From positions 1 through 25,543 of the forward strand of contig JAGHCC010000169.1 in assembly GCA_021160685.1 (NCBI GenBank): a DNA stretch of 25,543 nucleotides. Reading direction: 5' to 3'. The stretch comes from Desulfobulbaceae bacterium (GTDB taxonomy: Bacteria; Desulfobacterota; Desulfobulbia; Desulfobulbales; SURF-16). The translations under genes and the position numbers were made by a program. Shown here piece after piece: positions 1 through 24,050 of the stretch (positions are counted from its first letter, which is position 1; each line of letters begins with the position of its first letter). The notes below the pieces were generated by a model that was not told the DNA's origin, ran no database searches, and worked only from the letters and a program-made list of their open reading frames with translations.

Positions 1-1893
1 GTTCTGTTCCAGCCTGACCTGGACAACTCCCCGGACGGAATTAACCGCATAAATCCCATCGGCTTCAAGGAGATCATGCTCATGCAGCACCTTCTCCCTG
101 ACCCTTTCCCCGTTTTTTTCCAAAAGAAAGCGCCGCATGACACCCCCCAGCAGCCCGCATTCAATGGGCGGCGTGAAAAACATCTGCCCTTTCCTGATAA
201 AAATGTTGGTGATGCTGCCTTCGGTAACCTCCTCCCGTTCATTACAAAAAATTACCTCAAAACAGCCCCCATCAACCGCCTTTGTTCTTTCCGTATTGTA
301 GAGTTCCCGCATCGTTGTCTTATGAAACAGGGAGATCTGCCGAGAATCCGTCTTTTTCCCGGAAAAACGGATCAGGGAAAGATCAACGGTTGGGATATCA
401 TCTTGAAAAAAGGTGTTGCGCGGGGCGGAGCATGGAAAGGAACTGAGTTCCAGCCGGCCATCCTTGTGAAGAAGCAGGCGGACACGTTGAGGTGTTTTCC
501 ATGAAAATATTTCTTCCTGATTACGCAAGGCTTGACTGACCTGTTCCCGGCCGACCCGGAAAAAAAAGTAACGGGCTGAATTCAAAAGCCGGTCAAGATG
601 AAAATCAAGCAGCCAGAAACCCTGGCCCGTCTGCCAGAGAATGGTTTCAATGAGTTGAAAATCAGGCAAAGGGTTGGTCAGAAAATGACCTTTGAGTTTA
701 CATTCCCGCCATTCCTGCCCGGGATCAGAATCGGAAATGATACCGGAACCAATTCCCATTTCACCCTTGTTTTCTTCCAGAACCACGGTTCGGATGGGGA
801 CATTAAAACAACAATCACCATCCGGCCTGATATAGCCAATGGCGCCGGTATAAATTCCCCGGGGAACTGATTCAAGTTCATGGATAATTTCCATGGTATG
901 AATCTTAGGCGCGCCGGTCACCGAACCGCAGGGGAACAGGGCTCTGAACAGAGCGATGAGCGGGATGGAGGAGGGAATTTCACCGACAATGGTGGATGTC
1001 ATCTGATGCAGAGTCTCGTAGGTCTCGACATCAAAAAGCGACGACACGCTGACACGACCCATCCGGCCCAGATCGTTTCGCAGGAGATCAACGATCATGA
1101 CATTTTCACTTCTGTTTTTTATATCCAGCCCCAGGCAGCCGGCAATTGCCTCGTCCTCGGCCAGGGTCCGGCCCCGCCGGCTTGTCCCTTTCATGGGGCG
1201 TACCGTGCATCTGCTCCCCTCTTTCCTGAAAAAAAGTTCCGGCGAAAACGAGAGAACCCGCCGGCCGCCAAAGGTAAGATAAGCGGAGTATGAAACACTC
1301 TGATTTCGGCGCAGCCGCTGGTAAAGTTCATCAGGGGAACCTGCGAAGTCAAAGAGCAGTTTCAGAGTATAATTCACCTGATAGGTGTCGCCGGCAGCAA
1401 TATATTCCTTAATGCGATGAATTTTCTCCAGGTACTCCATTTTGTCCTGGCTGAAATGAAGATTGCTGATGACGCTGTCATTTTCCTGAATTTCCGCCTG
1501 AGTCGATGATGATGGCCATTGCCCGGAAATCGATTTCCCCAGCTGGTGATCAAAGACCGCCGGCGCCTCGAAAACAGCAAGGTGGGCCACAACAGTTTCC
1601 GGCTGCTGCCTGAACCGGGCAGACAGCACGGGTTCAAGGAGGTAGCCGAATTCATAGGCAAACCAGCCGGCAAGGTGGTATCCCTGATCCAGCTTTTCTT
1701 GGGCCTTTTGGAGAAATTGTTCGGGCTGTTGGCCGGCCGTGCAGGTGAGGTGCTCAACCGGATCAACGAACAGCAGGGAACACTGGTCTTCGTCCGTGAA
1801 CCGGGTCGTCTCGAAAAATGCAAATTCCCGCCCGGACAGGCCGGGGAGAAATTGCTGGAGGTCGTAAGAGGAAAATGGCGTCAATGTCTTCAT
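1..1893 (-). CDS. pabB: Aminodeoxychorismate synthase component I fused to class IV aminotransferase (ADC lyase-like); 3' end runs off the window
   Basis: Absent from the ORF track (no stop inside the window). Manual translation from ATG 1893 gives MKTLTPFSS...AGWFAYEFGYLLEP, YIAAGDTYQVNYT, SPELFF, RPMKGT, SENVMIVDLLRNDLGR, LFPCGSVTGAPK, GIGSGIISDSDPGQEWRECKLKG, then TPPIECGLLGGVMRR and AVNSVRGVVQV (class IV aminotransferase C-terminus). The frame is consistent at every segment checked. Confidence 0.93.
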   Translation of the reverse strand, partial: MKTLTPFSSYDLQQFLPGLSGREFAFFETTRFTDEDQCSLLFVDPVEHLTCTAGQQPEQFLQKAQEKLDQGYHLAGWFAYEFGYLLEPVLSARFRQQPETVVAHLAVFEAPAVFDHQLGKSISGQWPSSSTQAEIQENDSVISNLHFSQDKMEYLEKIHRIKEYIAAGDTYQVNYTLKLLFDFAGSPDELYQRLRRNQSVSYSAYLTFGGRRVLSFSPELFFRKEGSRCTVRPMKGTSRRGRTLAEDEAIAGCLGLDIKNRSENVMIVDLLRNDLGRMGRVSVSSLFDVETYETLHQMTSTIVGEIPSSIPLIALFRALFPCGSVTGAPKIHTMEIIHELESVPRGIYTGAIGYIRPDGDCCFNVPIRTVVLEENKGEMGIGSGIISDSDPGQEWRECKLKGHFLTNPLPDFQLIETILWQTGQGFWLLDFHLDRLLNSARYFFFRVGREQVSQALRNQEEIFSWKTPQRVRLLLHKDGRLELSSFPCSAPRNTFFQDDIPTVDLSLIRFSGKKTDSRQISLFHKTTMRELYNTERTKAVDGGCFEVIFCNEREEVTEGSITNIFIRKGQMFFTPPIECGLLGGVMRRFLLEKNGERVREKVLHEHDLLEADGIYAVNSVRGVVQVRLEQN

Positions 1894-2922: not shown

Positions 2923-2953
2923 GCGGAGAAAATTTTTAAAAAATTTTCTCCGC
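2923..2953 (+). terminator. Intrinsic terminator hairpin between convergent genes
   Basis: Perfect 15-bp inverted repeat GCGGAGAAAATTTTT-a-AAAAATTTTCTCCGC followed by TGTTTTTC on the + strand. Confidence 0.7.
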
Positions 2954-2974: not shown

Positions 2975-5434
2975 TCAACCCTTCATAATTACTTCAAGCT
3001 CATCTCCGTCGACGATCTCCTTTTTAATCAGGACAGCCGCCAATTTTTCTATCTTCTCCCAGTGTCGCTCCACCAGCTTTTCCGCCTTGACCGTGGCATC
3101 ACCAATCCACCGGGACAAGGCCTTTTCAATTTCTTGCCGAAAAAACTGCTTACTGACATTCTGGGCCAGAGTGTCAAAATGAATAGGGCCAAGTTCCTCA
3201 TCCATTCCCATATTGGCGATAGCCACATAGGCATGACGAGTTGCCTCTTCCAGGTCGTTTGCCGCCCCCGAGTCAATCCCTTTATCTCCGAATTCCCTCA
3301 CTTCCGCCATTCGGCCGGCCAGCAGGACACAAATATTATTAAAAACCTCTTTCCTGGAAACATTGCCGGCAAAATCTTCAGTTGAATATGAGATAAAACC
3401 CAAACTTTGCAGTCTCGGCGTTATGGTCACCTGTTCGATCTTGATATCCGGCAGCAGCAGGGAAGAAAGCACCGCATGACCGGCCTCATGATAAGCGGTC
3501 ATCCTGAGATCTTCTTCCAGATTTCTGATCCGTGTTTTTTCAAGTCTGGTGCCATACTTGATGATATTGATCTGTTCAATCAAAATCTCTTCGCTGATAA
3601 AGTCAAGACCGTTACGGATGGCCGCAAGCGATGCTTCCTTGCCGATCCGCTGCAGATCATAGCCATTCATTCCAGAGATATAACGAGCCACCCTTTCAGC
3701 GTCTATTTTACCGTCATTTGGTTTTTCCAGTATTTTTTCGATGAAAAATTTCCTGGCCTCCTTATCTAATTCCGGCACCTCGACAAAAAGATCAATTCTG
3801 TCCGGCGCTATCAACAGGGGACTCACCTCATCACGATTCTGAGCCGTGGCAAAGGTAAAGACAAATTCATCCGGATCAGTGGGCAGGCTGTCGAGCTCCA
3901 AAACCAATGGGTCCACCGGCATATAGGCATAGACCCCATCGACAAGCCCCTTCACATCAACCCCATCCAGGAAAACAATGCTTGGCGCGAACTCACGGGC
4001 TTTCTGATACACCAGCCAGATATAATTGGGATCAAAAAGATCACTGCGGGAAACATAGATGTAGGGCCGGCCGGCTTCCCTGGCAAACGCCTTACCAAAC
4101 ATTGTTTTCACTACACCTGCCGGGCCATGCAGCAGCATCCCCCTGGGGAGGTCAATGGCAAATTCCCTGACCAGTTCCGGGTTCTGGAGAATACCGATAA
4201 TCTCTTTAAATGTTTTTTTAATGGGCTCATTACCGGCAATATCATCAAAACACACAGATGAAAATTCCACAGCCGGCAGATCTTCCTGAAAGACCCCCTT
4301 GACCGGGGGCAATTTTTTCAGTTCTGCCTGTTCAAGGGTGATCAGCACCGTGTTCGCCTTTTCCTCCTCCTTCCAGCTTAACTCCACGGTCTCATTTCTC
4401 TTGAATAATTTCCGGACCAGCAGATCACCTTCCTGCAAAATTTCGTTCAAAAAAACCTTAACCTGCTGAGATGGTCTGAAAATAATTCTTGCCGGCAGCT
4501 TGTCAGTGTCCCGGATACATTGGGTCATTTTTGCCAAAATAATGTCCGGCAACTTCCGCCGAACCCTTTTTACATTGATAACAGGGGCAAAAGAGAGGGT
4601 CAACAGGGTCATGAGCTCTTTACGATCCTGCCATTCAAGCGTAATCCGGCTCTTGTCCAGCAGGCTTTTCGCCAGTAAATCCAGGGTGGCGGAACCGATA
4701 CGGACCATTGACGCCAGACTGAGTTTATTGAAAAGAACAAGATCATTGCGGGACATGACGGCAAGGAGCTTTGGCACAATGGCATCCTGAATCAATTCGT
4801 AAACAACTTTTTTCTCCTTTGAAACGGCCGCCATCATCAGCGATTGGGCTCTGACCTTATTTTTTTTGAAAGAATCAAGAAACTCTTTGTTCTGATACAG
4901 AACACTGCCAAGCGTGGAGGTAAAAACAAAGACAACCTCGCTGCAATCAAGGCCACTCTCATGATCGCTTGCTGTTATCAGATCGAGAAGGGCGAGCTGC
5001 AGCTGATTATCCGCTTTCTCGATAGAGTCAAAGACGATGACCGATTTAGGCTCTTTTTTTAGAAATCTGACCAGTTTTCCTTCCTGGACTTCATCATGGA
5101 CAAACTTGTGGCCAAGAAGTGTTCCCGCCTCCTCCGGCTCCGCATACTGCTCCATATCAAAAATCTTGAACCCTTTAATCTCATCAACATGTTCACTTAG
5201 CAATCGAGCCAGATAATTTTTGCCAACTGTTTCCGGCCCCAGAAAGGTAAAAATTGCCTTAGGCGGGGCTTCAATAGGCTTAAAGGCCATATGAATAAAG
5301 GCATCGATGACTTCATCAATGGCTTCATCCTGGTCAAAAATAATCGTTTTGAGCCGAGACCGAAGTTTTTCGAATTTTTCAAAAATATTTAGATTTGCAG
5401 TAGTCTGTTTCAATTCTTTTCCCGGTTTCCTCAC
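2975..5434 (-). CDS. Soluble AAA family protein: ClpA/B D2-like (AAA_2) module + FtsH-like AAA module + peptidase M41
   Basis: The N-terminus follows the ClpB D2 pattern (IIFDQDEAIDEV, FLGPETVGKN, DMEQY, VIVFDSIEKA, VFVFTSTLG). The C-terminal half follows FtsH (FDDIAG, PRGMLLHGPAGVVKT, TAYHEAGHA, GAANDLEEAT, MGMDEELG). No transmembrane segment is visible. Confidence 0.9.
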   Translation of the reverse strand: MRKPGKELKQTTANLNIFEKFEKLRSRLKTIIFDQDEAIDEVIDAFIHMAFKPIEAPPKAIFTFLGPETVGKNYLARLLSEHVDEIKGFKIFDMEQYAEPEEAGTLLGHKFVHDEVQEGKLVRFLKKEPKSVIVFDSIEKADNQLQLALLDLITASDHESGLDCSEVVFVFTSTLGSVLYQNKEFLDSFKKNKVRAQSLMMAAVSKEKKVVYELIQDAIVPKLLAVMSRNDLVLFNKLSLASMVRIGSATLDLLAKSLLDKSRITLEWQDRKELMTLLTLSFAPVINVKRVRRKLPDIILAKMTQCIRDTDKLPARIIFRPSQQVKVFLNEILQEGDLLVRKLFKRNETVELSWKEEEKANTVLITLEQAELKKLPPVKGVFQEDLPAVEFSSVCFDDIAGNEPIKKTFKEIIGILQNPELVREFAIDLPRGMLLHGPAGVVKTMFGKAFAREAGRPYIYVSRSDLFDPNYIWLVYQKAREFAPSIVFLDGVDVKGLVDGVYAYMPVDPLVLELDSLPTDPDEFVFTFATAQNRDEVSPLLIAPDRIDLFVEVPELDKEARKFFIEKILEKPNDGKIDAERVARYISGMNGYDLQRIGKEASLAAIRNGLDFISEEILIEQINIIKYGTRLEKTRIRNLEEDLRMTAYHEAGHAVLSSLLLPDIKIEQVTITPRLQSLGFISYSTEDFAGNVSRKEVFNNICVLLAGRMAEVREFGDKGIDSGAANDLEEATRHAYVAIANMGMDEELGPIHFDTLAQNVSKQFFRQEIEKALSRWIGDATVKAEKLVERHWEKIEKLAAVLIKKEIVDGDELEVIMKG

Positions 5435-5436
5435 TA

Positions 5437-6867
5437 TTAGTACTTTACCCGCACCGTATATGTCAGGGTTGCCTTGCCCTGGGCCGGAACCGGCACATAC
5501 CAGACAGCCCTATGACTTGCCGGTTTTTTATGTTTGTGAGATTCCTGACGCATTTCCCAGTCACCAGGAATCGGCTCGACAACTTTAACGGTTATGGCCT
5601 CTTTCTTGGCATTTTTCAAATCAATCTGAAAACTGCTGTCATAGACATAATGATAGCGGGAAAACCCGCTGATCTTCTTAAAATCCGTCTGTTTTTTATC
5701 GGCGGTCACATCAAAGGCATCGCCGAGCTTGAGGCGAATCGTTTCATTTTCCGGGGTATGATCAATGCGGTCTTCACCGATAAACTGCAGAGAAGCCTTG
5801 GAATCCTTTTTGTAAACCCGGATGACACCCTTGGGCATGGGCAGGCCGAGATTATTCTCCCTGCTGTTTTTCACTTCCACAGAAACACCGATTTTGATCT
5901 TCTTTTCTATTTCATCATACCGGCTCTGGTAATAGTAGTCGCTTCCACGGAGAACAAATTCCTTTTTGCAGGGAATCCGGCTTGCCTGGAGAAGGGCAAC
6001 CTGTTTTGTCTGGTTATCCTTGATTGTTGTTGGCCGGGACAGGGAATAAAGATGATATTCAAACATTGATTCTTCGGCCATTGAAGCATTCATATCCGCC
6101 ATCATTACTGCAGCTTTTTGCTGATAACGGGCCAGTTGCCGCTGTTCCGGCGGCGCCTGATGCACGTCACCGGCCACGAGTTGCAGCCTGGCATAAGGGT
6201 AAGTCGTTCCGCTGCGGTTAGTCAGGGTCACCCAGCCGTTGATATCGAGCTCGTCATCCGTGGCATTGAGCTCCGCCACATAATCAGCCTGCCAGCTCAA
6301 GCCACCGGTCAGATAACTCAATTCCACATCCTGGAGTCCGTCTGTGGAACTGTTGACATGCAAAACCAGGGTGGGGCGGTCCCGCAGATTACCGGGAACA
6401 TTGGGAAAAACCAAACGACCGGGAATTCCCATCTCAATATGGTCGGCCATGCGGAGGACAACACCATCATTGACACTTAACACCTGGGCCGACTCCCTGC
6501 TTTCCTCACCGGTAGTCGGATGATTCCTGACCACGGTGACCTCCTTTCCAACATATTTTTTCAACAGGGCCTGGGGAGTGAGGAGATCAAATTCAAAATT
6601 CTGCTCAATCACATTGAGATCACGGGATTTTAACAGGGCGGTCTCAGGCCTTATCCGGGCGCTGACCTCCCTGAAGGCCAGACTGCTTTCACCGGCTGGC
6701 AGCAGGATGGCCCGCAGATCTTTGACAAGAGCAAGATTCTGGTTGTAAATCGTCACAGAAATGCTTTTCTGGTCATCAAGCGAGGTAACCTTCTCCTCGA
6801 GAGCCGCTCCCGCAGGTGACACTAAAAGCGATACAACAAAACATAAACCAGTGATTGTTCGTAACAT
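5437..6867 (-). CDS. DUF4139-type secreted protein
   Basis: Signal-peptide-like N-terminus from ATG 6867, which has an RBS GAGGAGG upstream (the ORF track starts at 6885). Family-like motifs: SVTIYNQNLALVKD, LSYLTGGLSWQADY, GWVTLTNRSG, EYHLYSL, FIGEDRIDHTPENE. Confidence 0.8.
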   Translation of the reverse strand: MLRTITGLCFVVSLLVSPAGAALEEKVTSLDDQKSISVTIYNQNLALVKDLRAILLPAGESSLAFREVSARIRPETALLKSRDLNVIEQNFEFDLLTPQALLKKYVGKEVTVVRNHPTTGEESRESAQVLSVNDGVVLRMADHIEMGIPGRLVFPNVPGNLRDRPTLVLHVNSSTDGLQDVELSYLTGGLSWQADYVAELNATDDELDINGWVTLTNRSGTTYPYARLQLVAGDVHQAPPEQRQLARYQQKAAVMMADMNASMAEESMFEYHLYSLSRPTTIKDNQTKQVALLQASRIPCKKEFVLRGSDYYYQSRYDEIEKKIKIGVSVEVKNSRENNLGLPMPKGVIRVYKKDSKASLQFIGEDRIDHTPENETIRLKLGDAFDVTADKKQTDFKKISGFSRYHYVYDSSFQIDLKNAKKEAITVKVVEPIPGDWEMRQESHKHKKPASHRAVWYVPVPAQGKATLTYTVRVKY

Positions 6868-6887
6868 TTTACGACTCCTCCTCAAAA

Positions 6888-20090: not shown

Positions 20091-21422
20091 ATGTTGTGGA
20101 ATAATATAAAAAATAAATTGTCTAAAAAGCTGTCAAACAGTGTTTATTCGCTCTGGATTGAGCCAATCTGCTGCCTTAAAGAAGACAGTCAGGGGTTGGA
20201 ACTGGCCGGACCGGATGTTTTTTTCTGTAATTGGATTAAAAATAATTACCTGACAGAGATCAAGAGCTGCCTGGATGAACTTGACCGAAATAATATCACT
20301 ATCCGGTTCACTGTTGATGGTTCGAGTCGAAGGCCGCTGCTCACCGGCAGAAGCGAGCAACTGCGCCTGCCAACCATGCCCAAAGCGCGGTCATACGTTC
20401 GAGCCCTGCACCCCCGCCACACCTTTGCTGAATTTGTGGTCGGAGAAAGCAATATGGTTGCCCACGGTGCCAGCGAGGCAATGGCTATGAACGATACGAC
20501 TCTCGGACCTTGTCTTTATATCAAGGCCGCCACCGGCCTGGGAAAAAGCCACTTGACCCATGCCGTGGCCCACCATATCCTGAATCACTCGCCGGGAACG
20601 CGACTGCAATACCTCACGGCCCAGCAACTCACAGGAGAAATGGTTAAAGCGATTCAAAATAACAGCATGAACAGCTTTAAAAAGAAGTATCAAAACCACT
20701 GCGATATTCTGCTGATTGAAGATATTCACACCTTGGGCGGCAAACCCAAGACCCAGAGTGAACTGGCGGAAACTCTTGATTATCTTATGGATCGAGGAAA
20801 ACGGATTATCATGACCAGCTCCATGACCCCGCTGGATATTCCTGACATTGACTCTGCTTTCCGCTCCAGATTAACCTCTGGACTAATCACCACCATCAAC
20901 CCTCCGGACCTAAAAACCCGTATTCGAATTATCAAAAGAAAAGCCGACAACTGCCAGCTTCCCCTCAACGAAGAACAGATCCTGTTCCTGGCTGAACAGG
21001 TCAAAGGTGACATCCGCCAAATCAAAAGTATCATTGTCGGCATCAAGGCTCAATGCGGCCTGCTCAAAACCAGCCCTGATCTTACTTTGGTCAAGGAAAC
21101 CCTGAGAGATATTATTGGTCGCCACAATGACCTGACCGCCGAAACCATCCGTAATTTTATCGCCAGCCAGTTCAAGGTTACCATTAATGATCTCTGCTCC
21201 AAATCCAGGAAAAAAGCCATTACCTTTCCTCGGCAGATTTCAATGTACCTGGCCCGTAAATACACGAACCAGCCTCTGGCCGATATTGGCAGAGCTTTTA
21301 ACCGGGATCATTCAACCGTGGTTCATTCCGTTCGGGTCATCTCCGATCAAATCACACGATCCGGCAGCGTGCGGGGCCAAGTCGAACTTATTTCCACCAA
21401 GCTTGAAAAACAGTTTTTGTAG
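20091..21422 (+). CDS. dnaA: DnaA family protein (likely a second, divergent paralog)
   Basis: YSLWIEP domain I, HTFAEFVVGESN, Walker A TGLGKSHL, Walker B LLIEDIH, domain IV RQISMYLAR and FNRDHSTVVHS. No dnaN follows. Confidence 0.92.
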   Translation: MLWNNIKNKLSKKLSNSVYSLWIEPICCLKEDSQGLELAGPDVFFCNWIKNNYLTEIKSCLDELDRNNITIRFTVDGSSRRPLLTGRSEQLRLPTMPKARSYVRALHPRHTFAEFVVGESNMVAHGASEAMAMNDTTLGPCLYIKAATGLGKSHLTHAVAHHILNHSPGTRLQYLTAQQLTGEMVKAIQNNSMNSFKKKYQNHCDILLIEDIHTLGGKPKTQSELAETLDYLMDRGKRIIMTSSMTPLDIPDIDSAFRSRLTSGLITTINPPDLKTRIRIIKRKADNCQLPLNEEQILFLAEQVKGDIRQIKSIIVGIKAQCGLLKTSPDLTLVKETLRDIIGRHNDLTAETIRNFIASQFKVTINDLCSKSRKKAITFPRQISMYLARKYTNQPLADIGRAFNRDHSTVVHSVRVISDQITRSGSVRGQVELISTKLEKQFL

Positions 21423-21909: not shown

Positions 21910-23292
21910 ATGAACACTTTACAGAAATTCAACATCAAAGAAAAAATGATTCTTGGCTACATGCCTATTCTGCTGGCGATCATCGCAATTGCCGTTTTTT
22001 CTCTGCAAAGCCTCAACCAGTTTGAAAGAATCAATAAAGACATCGTGGAAAACGATACCGTTCTCCTCCTGACAACAGACAAATTAGTGGATAATCTTCT
22101 GGCCCAGGAAGCGTATGGCCGGCGCCATATGATTCTGGGGAGCCCGCAGATGCTGGAGTTATTCCGGCAGCGCAGTCATGCCTTTGATTCGCTTATGGAC
22201 CAAATCCGAGCCCTGCCGAAACGTAAAAATATTCCCATCGAACAGCTGGCATCTCTCCATTATGAACTGAATGAGCTGTATACAAAAAATTTTGCATCAT
22301 TAAACAACTCAGCAGCAGGTCCTGTTCCGAGATACGACAATCAAATACAAGGGAAGCTTGACGAGATTCTTGTGCTTATCCAACGTATTGAAAAAGTCGG
22401 CTGGGAAAACCAGCACCAAAAAATAGTCAATGCCAGCACCATCGGCATGAGAACATTCCGGATTACGGGACTGTTATCGGTTTTGGGATTCATCCTGGGA
22501 TTTGTCGCAATATCGTTGATCAGCCGCAGTATCTCCCGCTCAATCCAACAGTTAAAATCTTCCGCCAAGCTGATATCGGAAGGACATTTTGACCATTACC
22601 CGAACGTCGGCACCAAAGACGAATTCAGAGAACTTGCCAGCTCTTTTGGTGACATGGCTCAACGATTGGCGTTTCTGGAAGTGATCCATCGGGACGCAAA
22701 TCCCTTAACCAGACTGCCTGGGGGAACAGCCATTGAAGATGTTCTTAAAAACAGTCTGGCTACGAATAAAAATATTTCATTCTGCATGCTGGACCTGGAT
22801 AATTTCAAGTCATTTAACGACCGCTACGGATATGCCCAGGGCAATGAAATCATCAAGGCGACAGCGGAATTAATCAAATCCACCATTTCCAGGTATAACT
22901 CTGATGACAACTTTGTCGGTCACATTGGCGGAGATGATTTTGTCGCGATTGTCAATCAACGTCACCACAGGGCAATATGCGAGACTATTATCAAAGAATT
23001 TGACCGAATGGTTCCCGATTATTATAATGTCAAAGACAGAAAAAAAGGCTACATTGTCGGCAATACGCGACAGGGACTGGAAGTGAGATTTCCCATCATG
23101 ACTATTTCAATCGCAGTGGTGAACGTTGACCCTCAGAGTCCGACAAATCATTTAATAATCGGGGAGATTGCCGCAGAATTAAAAGGGCACGCCAAGTCGA
23201 TCCCGGGCAGCGTGTTCGTTGTCAACCGCAGAGGTCAGAAAAGACAACAACCCGGTTTCCGGCCTAAGCTTGTCGGCCAAGGTGGGAAATGA
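21910..23292 (+). CDS. Membrane protein: periplasmic helical sensor + HAMP + GGDEF-family domain (GGDDF variant)
   Basis: Two TM segments (MILGYMPILLAIIAIAVFSL; ITGLLSVLGFILGFVAISLI); HAMP (SIQQLKSSAKLISEGHF...DEFRELASSFGDMAQRL); DANPLTRLP, LDLDNFKSFNDRYG, GHIGGDDF, IMTISIAV. ATG 21910 is preferred over the track start at 21856. Confidence 0.88.
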   Translation: MNTLQKFNIKEKMILGYMPILLAIIAIAVFSLQSLNQFERINKDIVENDTVLLLTTDKLVDNLLAQEAYGRRHMILGSPQMLELFRQRSHAFDSLMDQIRALPKRKNIPIEQLASLHYELNELYTKNFASLNNSAAGPVPRYDNQIQGKLDEILVLIQRIEKVGWENQHQKIVNASTIGMRTFRITGLLSVLGFILGFVAISLISRSISRSIQQLKSSAKLISEGHFDHYPNVGTKDEFRELASSFGDMAQRLAFLEVIHRDANPLTRLPGGTAIEDVLKNSLATNKNISFCMLDLDNFKSFNDRYGYAQGNEIIKATAELIKSTISRYNSDDNFVGHIGGDDFVAIVNQRHHRAICETIIKEFDRMVPDYYNVKDRKKGYIVGNTRQGLEVRFPIMTISIAVVNVDPQSPTNHLIIGEIAAELKGHAKSIPGSVFVVNRRGQKRQQPGFRPKLVGQGGK

Positions 23293-24050
23293 AACATTTC
23301 AGGCTACTAAGGACTTGTTCCTTAATAAACTTTACATCTTGCTTGTCTTTTTACCCATACTCTGCGTTGCACAAACAGTTACATAACCGAGCTATGCGCC
23401 TGTTTGTGCGCCTTGATTATGGACAAAAAATCCTGCGCAATATTGTAAAATTTATTTCGTCTCAAATCCTAAAGTCAGATTTTCGACCATTCATTCTCCT
23501 GTTGTCCTGTGTCGGGTTGCTTACAAGCGGCTGTGTTGACAAATCCTTATTCAACACCTATCCCCACTATTACCTGTCCATTGAAAGTGAAAATATTGAA
23601 CCGGAAATCATCCGTCTTGAAAAAACCATAGCCGATAAACCAGATTCAGCGGCTGCCGCAGAGTCATTTTATTATCTTTCCCTCCTCTACTCACACCACA
23701 AAAAACGACAACCCGATTACCAAAAGGCCTTGCAGAATCTTGAAAGCTATATCCGGCTCAATCCCGAGGCAGGAAAGAAAAATGACGTCAAGTACCTTCT
23801 GTCGTTATTCCGGAAGATTGAGACATTAGGAACCAAAAATAATACACTAAAAGCCAAAAACAATGCCCTGAAAGCCAAAAATGATGCCTTAAAAAAAGAT
23901 AGAGTGAAGCTGAAACGCAACAGCACAACATTAAAAAGGGAAAAAGAGCAGCTGACAACAGAAAATCTAAATCTGCAGGACATAATTGAACAGCTGAAGC
24001 TTCTTGATATCCAGCTTGAGAAAAGAAGAAAATCCGTAACTATTCAGTAG
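23289..24050 (+). CDS. Putative lipoprotein with a TPR-like helix pair and C-terminal coiled coil (QseG/YfhG-like)
   Basis: ATGA overlap with the upstream stop; hydrophobic stretch ending LLTSGC; TPR-like SFYYLSLLYSH...DYQKALQNLESYIRLNP; heptad tail ending EQLKLLDIQLEKRRK. The true start may be downstream (e.g. 23394). Confidence 0.65.
   Translation: MKHFRLLRTCSLINFTSCLSFYPYSALHKQLHNRAMRLFVRLDYGQKILRNIVKFISSQILKSDFRPFILLLSCVGLLTSGCVDKSLFNTYPHYYLSIESENIEPEIIRLEKTIADKPDSAAAAESFYYLSLLYSHHKKRQPDYQKALQNLESYIRLNPEAGKKNDVKYLLSLFRKIETLGTKNNTLKAKNNALKAKNDALKKDRVKLKRNSTTLKREKEQLTTENLNLQDIIEQLKLLDIQLEKRRKSVTIQ
23833..23895 (+). repeat. Three imperfect 21-bp tandem repeats encoding heptads
   Basis: ccaaaaataatacactaaaag / ccaaaaacaatgccctgaaag / ccaaaaatgatgccttaaaaa, encoding KNNTLKA KNNALKA KNDALKK. 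Confidence 0.8.

Follow-up and report, generated by a model that had tools for sequence, protein, structure and literature searches.

FtsH-family proteases are a textbook case of ATP-driven proteolysis. Hydrolysis-coupled degradation by FtsH needs the pore-loop residues, the Walker B acids, the sensor-1 Asn, and the arginine of the second region of homology (SRH) (PMC2734466); the pore-loop residues are reported as essential for degradation (PMC2734466, citing Yamada-Inagawa 2003), and in paraplegin the second Arg of the RPGR motif is a putative arginine finger (PMC2734466). In contrast, LonC of Meiothermus taiwanensis forms a hexamer without ATPase activity that holds six bound nucleotides and degrades only unfolded substrates, with no need of ATP (PMC3391209). 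Here we describe a protease gene from a 25,543-nucleotide stretch of Desulfobulbaceae DNA (contig JAGHCC010000169.1, positions 1 to 25,543, referred to below as the window). The gene occupies the minus strand, and its product joins a ClpB-like AAA+ module, an FtsH-type AAA module, and a Peptidase_M41 domain. This protein has kept its zinc site and nucleotide-binding loops but has discarded, in two modules, the residues for hydrolyzing ATP and gripping a substrate. We consider it probable, from the pattern of residues, that the protein is a cytosolic M41 zinc metalloprotease in which the two AAA+-derived modules serve as nucleotide-binding scaffolds or gates instead of motors and cleavage proceeds without ATP hydrolysis.

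Three Pfam domains were matched by the window protein: AAA_2 at residues 58 to 204 (E value of 7e-16; 59 bits against a cut-off of 27), AAA at residues 433 to 554 (3e-15), and Peptidase_M41 (PF01434) at residues 641 to 814 (3e-34; 119.1 bits against a gathering cut-off of 29.9). The N-terminal 365 residues make up a complete Hsp100 second nucleotide-binding domain (D2), with both its large and its small subdomain. A profile search of the PDB with this first module retrieved the D2 of Thermus thermophilus ClpB with an E value of 5e-28, Foldseek retrieved 4fcw with an E value of 5e-16, and VIA-align of the N-terminal half gave Z scores of 20.2 for CLPB/Skd3 (318 residues aligned), 19.1 for ClpA, and 18.1 for ClpB NBD2. 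The model of this half was built from a 10-sequence alignment and had a middling predicted local distance difference test score (pLDDT) of 65.5, but the matches to ClpB, Skd3, and ClpA were still unambiguous. The C-terminal 430 residues aligned end to end with the cytosolic region of FtsH (E value of 1e-50 for the T. maritima and A. aeolicus structures), with 30% identity to the FtsH of the same genome and a Foldseek E value of 6e-30. In the full-length AlphaFold monomer the domains folded confidently, with a mean pLDDT of 83.9. No transmembrane helix was found, the highest Kyte-Doolittle mean over 19 residues being 1.3. The protease is a ClpB-D2/FtsH chimera. It had been described in these terms, and as soluble, in the initial annotation, which was made from the letters alone; Pfam, profile, and fold matches all agree with that description, and each of the three domains that it named for a Pfam scan was found. 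All of the motifs that it quoted, including HEAGH at 3476 to 3490, were found in their places when the translation was checked.

We tabulated the motif residues in 115 full-length homologues from Desulfobacterota and Campylobacterota. HEAxH (HEAGH at residues 649 to 653 of the window protein) and the third zinc ligand, Asp727, which lies in a GAANDLEEAT motif (residues 723 to 732), were present in 115/115 sequences, so the M41 zinc site, which had been described as intact in the window protein, is intact throughout. With a domain score above the gathering cut-off and both HEAGH and D727 in place, the window protein is a bona fide member of peptidase family M41. In the FtsH-type module (module 2), the P-loop was nearly invariant: G437, G440, and K443 were found in all 115 homologues, G442 in 114, and Thr or Ser at position 444 in 111. 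The Walker B Asp (D490) was kept in 114/115 and the second SRH Arg (R546) in 112/115. The remaining positions behaved differently. At the Walker B Glu position, 86 homologues had Gly, 28 (the Nitrosophilus and Desulfonema orthologues among them) had Glu, and 1 had Gln. Along the family tree this position switched at least 7 times, with repeated loss of the Glu, as would be expected once catalysis has ceased to constrain it. The first SRH Arg was present in 0/115 (Glu in 52, Ala in 50, and Ser in 8), and pore loop 1 was deleted in 115/115, with the same short length in all of them. The sensor-1 column of module 2 is ambiguous, since HMMER places it at residue 532 and BLAST at residue 533, and Asn was found in 11/115 at the former or 47/115 at the latter and was conserved at neither. 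Homologues without the Walker B Glu seemed at first to have gained an acidic residue at position 545 (67/86 versus 4/28 in raw counts), but phylogenetically independent pairs gave no support for such a coupling, and the idea was rejected.

The ClpB-D2-like module (module 1) has also diverged from the canonical motifs, again with its P-loop kept. G66 was found in 115/115 and G71 and K72 in 114/115 each, whereas the Mg-binding Thr/Ser of Walker A was present in only 22/115. The Walker B Asp position held Asp in 45 homologues, Glu in 50, and other residues in 20, Glu occupied the Walker B Glu position in 12/115, and a Walker A Thr/Ser together with a Walker B DE occurred in a single homologue (1/115). 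Thr stood at the sensor-1 Asn position in 90/115, the position of the ClpB D2 Arg finger was occupied by Thr, Ala, Val, or Leu, and the pore-loop region lacked any aromatic residue in 80/115, with no aromatic conserved there. Thus, as read from the alignment, the family has lost the residues for hydrolysis and substrate gripping and has kept those for nucleotide binding and zinc catalysis. The claim that both ATPase modules are degenerate therefore holds as far as hydrolysis and translocation are concerned; it does not extend to nucleotide binding, given the nearly invariant P-loops. Similarly, the SRH was correctly described as having lost its first Arg, but its second is retained. The degeneration covers many sites and is shared by the whole family, and the case does not rest on the single base at 4110, as the initial annotation had maintained.

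The unusual Walker A of module 2 (GPAGVVKT) was a different matter. Its Val442 depends on base 4110 and was found in 1/115 sequences, the window copy alone. Logan contigs from four public metagenome runs, belonging to four studies of hydrothermal-vent and marine-sediment samples, all had C at this base and not A, which gives Gly. In run X1, five near-identical contigs covered about half of the gene and showed no other difference from the window. This comparison was made on contigs rather than reads, and depth was low (approximately 3 to 8) in three of the four runs. The A at 4110 is probably an assembly consensus error or a rare allele; a consensus error is the simplest reading, and the natural protein would then have a canonical GPAGVGKT. 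Since Val is unique among the 115 sequences and four runs read C, the Walker A defect of module 2 is probably not genuine, and of the evidence offered earlier for degeneration of this module it is the Walker B Glu and the first SRH Arg that stand.

Purifying selection acts on the whole protein. The ratios of nonsynonymous to synonymous substitution rates (dN/dS; Nei-Gojobori) against two same-genus orthologues, which were 88 to 92% identical to the window protein, were 0.148 and 0.140, and all four parts of the protein were constrained, with per-domain values of 0.08 to 0.22 and the M41 domain the most constrained. The frame was intact in every orthologue found. Residues 555 to 640 (window positions 3515 to 3772), which form the module 2 lid and the linker to the protease, rank with the best-conserved parts of the family. 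Their sequence, PELDxEARRFFIEKILEKPNDGKID ... EEILIEQINxIKYG, is unlike the FtsH counterpart, and the invariant residues include R561, G575, Y585, G588, R596, N623, and K626 to G628. This stretch may be an inter-ring or regulatory surface.

A word-indexed protein search with the window protein gave 669 matches. Full-length proteins with the same architecture (780 to 840 amino acids) were found in Desulfobulbales, Desulfobacterales, and Thiovibrio and in the Campylobacterota genera Nitratiruptor and Nitrosophilus, and across these two phyla they were 46 to 64% identical to the window protein. Orthologues were present in 13 of 40 related genomes, with a patchy spread even inside the family, and in 3 of 300 others sampled evenly across the phylum; thus, this is an accessory gene. 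The genome that carries it also encodes an ordinary membrane FtsH in which all of the canonical motifs are intact, which makes the window protease an extra, specialized paralogue. FtsH is expected in most bacteria, and a control search with Pfam M41 gave a match in 10 of 14 reference genomes. Plasmid and phage collections contained no match to the protease, and PADLOC defense models gave short generic AAA matches only (IetA, 2e-8, residues 398 to 465). None of the public runs listed as carrying the gene was an RNA run, which has no bearing on whether it is expressed. No curated family covers the protease, full-text literature searches found no paper describing the AAA_2 + AAA + M41 architecture, and in databases these proteins go under the names "AAA family ATPase" or "ATP-dependent Zn protease," which are probably misleading. 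Additionally, the ESM Atlas contained clusters of short (420 to 490 amino acids) AAA + M41 proteins from Bacillota, Campylobacterota, and the archaeal Hadarchaeota. At that length they would be without the usual FtsH N-terminal region, and they may be further soluble FtsH-like lineages.

The origin of the family could be traced to a group of active-looking relatives. An exhaustive HMMER search of 1.84 billion cluster representatives with the N-terminal half returned 31 proteins with E values below 1e-30, which include, besides the family itself, proteins of a sister group (P0125 to P0159 in our set). The sister proteins are soluble and 840 to 1,120 amino acids long and carry an N-terminal extension without a Pfam domain, followed by AAA_2, AAA, and M41; one member of a sister-group cluster, P0273, has 2,046 amino acids. 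They share with the window protein the three-domain core, homology over the whole length (N-terminal half E values down to 1e-47), and a short module 2 pore loop. They differ from it in the extra N-terminal region and in their canonical motifs: module 1 has a GPPATGKT Walker A, a DEIEKAH Walker B, a TSNLG sensor-1, and a pore loop with an aromatic (GY, HW, or FY), and module 2 has GPPGTGKT, FIDEIDA, ATN at sensor-1, and LRSGRID in the SRH, thus with RxxR. Their module 2 loop is already short, and these proteins seem to carry a substrate-gripping aromatic only in the ClpB-D2-like ring. Named examples are an "AAA family ATPase" of Caminibacter pacificus (WP_123352578) and one of Campylobacter sp., and here, likewise, no experimental study was found in the literature. 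In a maximum-likelihood tree of the FtsH-like half, with ordinary FtsH loci as the outgroup, all of the double-ring proteins grouped in one clade separate from the 13 canonical FtsH sequences (Shimodaira-Hasegawa-like approximate likelihood ratio test [SH-aLRT] support of 100). Within it the degenerate proteins of about 800 amino acids were a single clade (SH-aLRT of 100, stem of 0.44) nested among the active-looking ones; length and motif state had been used to define the two groups, and the alignment included the motif columns. The degenerate family arose once, from a double-ring M41 group with canonical motifs, by loss of the N-terminal extension and of catalytic residues. New in the present analysis are this nesting, the finding that the Walker B Glu was lost repeatedly, and the comparison of base 4110 with public contigs.

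These results can be combined in a mechanism. By analogy with FtsH and ClpB, the ClpB-D2-like and FtsH-like modules would stack as rings of a putative hexamer. Both would be motor-dead, having no pore-loop aromatic, no Walker B Glu, and no conserved sensor-1 Asn and having lost the module 1 Arg finger and the module 2 first SRH Arg, while the P-loop Gly and Lys of both modules, the module 2 Walker B Asp, and the second SRH Arg would still allow nucleotide to bind without being hydrolyzed. A working motor is unlikely here because the residues that FtsH needs for hydrolysis-coupled degradation are missing, and with the P-loops kept the rings are most likely nucleotide-binding scaffolds or gates, not unfoldases. 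The only substrates would then be unfolded or loosely folded polypeptides able to arrive at the zinc sites with no translocation driven by ATP, and whether nucleotide is bound may adjust assembly of the protein or access to it. The initial annotation had suggested a protease that is either ATP independent or nucleotide gated. The motif pattern and the lack of decay support that suggestion, conservation of the P-loops favors the nucleotide-gated option, and proteolysis without ATP is a prediction made from sequence. A bolder version, which we offer only tentatively and think may well be wrong, is that this is the first M41 protease to work without ATP hydrolysis: a cytosolic double pseudo-ATPase ring in which the P-loops read the nucleotide state and open or assemble the chamber, so that cleavage of unfolded proteins would be switched, but not powered, by energy status, with one clade recording the step from active to nucleotide gated. 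Canonical FtsH, the active double-ring relatives, the Glu members, and the Gly members of the family form a natural series on what becomes of AAA+ rings after pulling ends, and a soluble protein should be much easier to study than membrane FtsH.

Several observations weigh against a hydrolysis-free protease. A full Walker A together with a Walker B DE is present in module 2 of 28/115 members, and R546, the equivalent of the putative finger of paraplegin, is kept in the window protease as in 112/115 of the family; because of this, slow ATP hydrolysis is possible in some members. The window protein itself has an Asn at 533, a possible module 2 sensor-1 position, as noted above for 47/115. Because the P-loops and the module 2 lid are so strongly conserved, nucleotide state seems to matter, and "ATP-independent" may be too strong a term. 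Furthermore, the monomer model had a predicted template modeling score of only 0.58, too low to fix the relative domain placement or the oligomer, and no conserved gene neighbor pointing to a substrate or partner was found. A rival reading is that the protein is still an ATP-fueled unfoldase-protease with noncanonical residues for catalysis and substrate gripping. Module 2 would then hydrolyze ATP, at least in the Glu members, with its Walker A and Walker B Asp and with R546 acting in trans. Such a reading would account for the nearly invariant module 2 P-loop, for D490 in 114/115, for the Walker B Glu in 28/115, and for purifying selection on the AAA modules, and it can appeal to the second SRH Arg as the putative finger of paraplegin (PMC2734466). 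However, the clade of the window protein has Gly at the catalytic Glu, a position that flipped at least 7 times; module 1 lacks the Mg-binding Thr/Ser, the Walker B acids, sensor-1, and the Arg finger; and the module 2 pore loop is deleted in 115/115 with no conserved aromatic in the module 1 loop, while in FtsH the pore-loop residues are reported as essential for degradation (PMC2734466). We regard an ATP-fueled enzyme as unlikely.

Another reading considered was a protease ring unable to find substrates alone, in which the pseudo-ATPase rings would be where a separate unfoldase or adaptor docks or in which the protein would coassemble with the canonical FtsH of the genome. The strong conservation of module surfaces and lids would suit a docking role, a canonical FtsH is available in the same genome, and mixed FtsH/FtsHi assemblies exist in plastids (8xku and 8xks, among the fold matches). 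Against this, no partner gene is conserved beside the protease across genera, an extra N-terminal ring and the lack of transmembrane helices would be a poor fit to the membrane-facing side of FtsH, and orthologues occur only in 13/40 relatives and 3/300 genomes of the phylum, although FtsH is expected in most bacteria; coassembly or docking is thus distinctly improbable. Finally, the odd motifs might be damage in a decaying or nonfunctional copy, since many catalytic motifs are noncanonical and Val442 occurs in the window copy alone. The initial annotation had itself named two signs by which this would be recognized, homologues with canonical motifs and a dN/dS near 1. Instead, the degenerate catalytic and pore residues were family-wide (n = 115), dN/dS was 0.14 to 0.15, the frame was intact in all orthologues found, proteins 46 to 64% identical, their zinc site and P-loops invariant, persist in two phyla, and Val442 is contradicted by four public runs. 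Decay is hardly credible on these data, and a nucleotide-binding, nonmotor M41 protease remains the reading that we prefer.

The ORF is one open frame of 819 codons from a GTG at 5434. The database version of the same protein has 812 amino acids, matching a TTG start at 5413, where a GGGAA-type ribosome-binding site lies just upstream and where the orthologues also start; the TTG is likely the true start. Upstream on the same strand, a DUF4139 gene (5437 to 6885, 482 amino acids, weak MuiA-family similarity) ends 2 nucleotides before the GTG and 23 nucleotides before the TTG, and the two genes are probably cotranscribed. Downstream, a hairpin that is likely a bidirectional terminator separates the protease gene from a convergent CBS-pair gene. 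Synteny of the protease gene with the DUF4139 and CBS genes was seen in two same-genus genomes only, and across genera no partner gene was conserved beside it; elsewhere its neighbors were unrelated (DctP, CxxCxxCC, FtsX/MacB, PilZ, and an Na+/H+ antiporter). The coordinates of all features are collected in Table 1.

Table 1. Features of the protease gene and its 3' flank in window coordinates
Feature	Position	Strand	Remarks
Whole ORF	2975..5434	-	819 amino acids from GTG; 812 amino acids from TTG 5413
Module 1, large subdomain, ClpB/ClpA-D2-like AAA+ (AAA_2, residues 58-204)	4823..5263	-	Pfam, profile, Foldseek, VIA
Module 1 Walker A GPETVGKN (residues 66-73)	5216..5239	-	Gly/Lys near-invariant in family
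Module 1 degenerate Walker B FDSIEKA (residues 135-141)	5012..5032	-	Seen in translation
Rest of D2-like module (small/lid subdomain) and alpha/beta linker with long beta-hairpin (residues 205-390)	4265..4822	-	Model, profile, fold comparison
Module 2, FtsH-type AAA (residues 433-554)	3773..4138	-	Pfam, sequence and fold alignment
Module 2 Walker A GPAGVVKT (residues 437-444)		-	Seen in translation
Codon 442, Val in window	4109..4111	-	Base 4110
Site of 6-residue deletion removing FtsH pore loop 1 (MFVGVG)	4028..4033	-	HMMER and BLAST alignments to FtsH
Module 2 Walker B FLDGVD (residues 488-493)	3956..3973	-	DG in place of FtsH DE
Module 2 SRH remnant LIAPDRID (residues 541-548)	3791..3814	-	AxxR in place of RxxR
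Peptidase_M41 domain (residues 641-814)	2993..3514	-	HEAGH at 3476-3490; third zinc ligand Asp727 at 3254-3256
Hairpin, 14-bp palindrome with T/A runs	2923..2953		No strand; pattern match only; between protease stop codon and convergent CBS gene

The window as a whole is an ordinary chromosomal region, with genes for ProRS, IspG, DnaA, RelA/SpoT, ResB/CcsA, and PBP1. The dnaA gene (20091 to 21422, plus strand) is about 15 kb from the protease gene, and the window may be near the replication origin; the cumulative GC skew fell steadily over the whole window, without a turning point. A frame at 1 to 1893 (minus strand), which is open at its 3' end so that the C terminus lies outside the window, combines chorismate-binding (PabB-like) and class IV aminotransferase (PabC-like) domains and looks like a PabB-PabC fusion. 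A 253-amino-acid ORF at 23289 to 24050 (plus strand) overlaps the stop of a HAMP-GGDEF gene by 4 nucleotides and had no Pfam match at an E value of ≤1e-5.

Compared with known systems, the window protease shares with FtsH (MEROPS M41; PDB 2ce7, 3kds, 4ww0, and 7tdo) the AAA fold, the lid, HEAGH, and the Asp third zinc ligand. It differs in having no transmembrane helices or periplasmic domain and in carrying an additional ClpB-D2-like module in front, and its pore loop 1 is deleted, its Walker B Glu is replaced by Gly, its first SRH Arg is lost, and its sensor-1 Asn is not conserved. Its scores against the FtsH equivalogs were far below the cut-offs (211.9 bits against 600 for TIGR01241 and 132.8 against 1,008 for NF008004). 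With no membrane anchor, subthreshold scores, and catalytic AAA motifs missing, it stands outside FtsH proper. To the D2 of ClpB, ClpA, and Skd3 (7xbk and 1ksf in addition to 4fcw), it is related by the fold of residues 13 to 365, with VIA Z scores of 18 to 20 and 280 to 318 residues aligned, and the hhhFDxIEKA context of Walker B is still recognizable. Unlike ClpB and ClpA, it has no GYVG pore loop, Walker B acids, sensor-1 Asn, Arg finger, or Walker A Thr and no D1, middle, or N domain, and it scored 69 against 1,232 and 72 against 993 with the respective equivalogs (TIGR03346 and TIGR02639); with these motifs absent and scores below the cut-offs, it is not a member of ClpB/ClpA either. The plastid FtsHi proteins of the Ycf2-FtsHi motor, also among the fold matches, are FtsH paralogues that have given up one of two activities. 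FtsHi kept the ATPase and lost the zinc site, a mirror image of the pattern seen in the window protease. The closest functional analogue is LonC, which is likewise a self-compartmentalizing protease with an AAA-like module devoid of ATPase function, a state that in the window protease is predicted from its sequence. The two belong to unrelated families, with a Ser-Lys Lon domain and one pseudo-AAA module in LonC versus an M41 zinc site and two such modules here, and the Pfam scan found no Lon domain in the window protease; the resemblance would be one of mechanism only and not of family membership. If it holds, the M41 chamber, like that of Lon in the case of LonC, can do without a motor.

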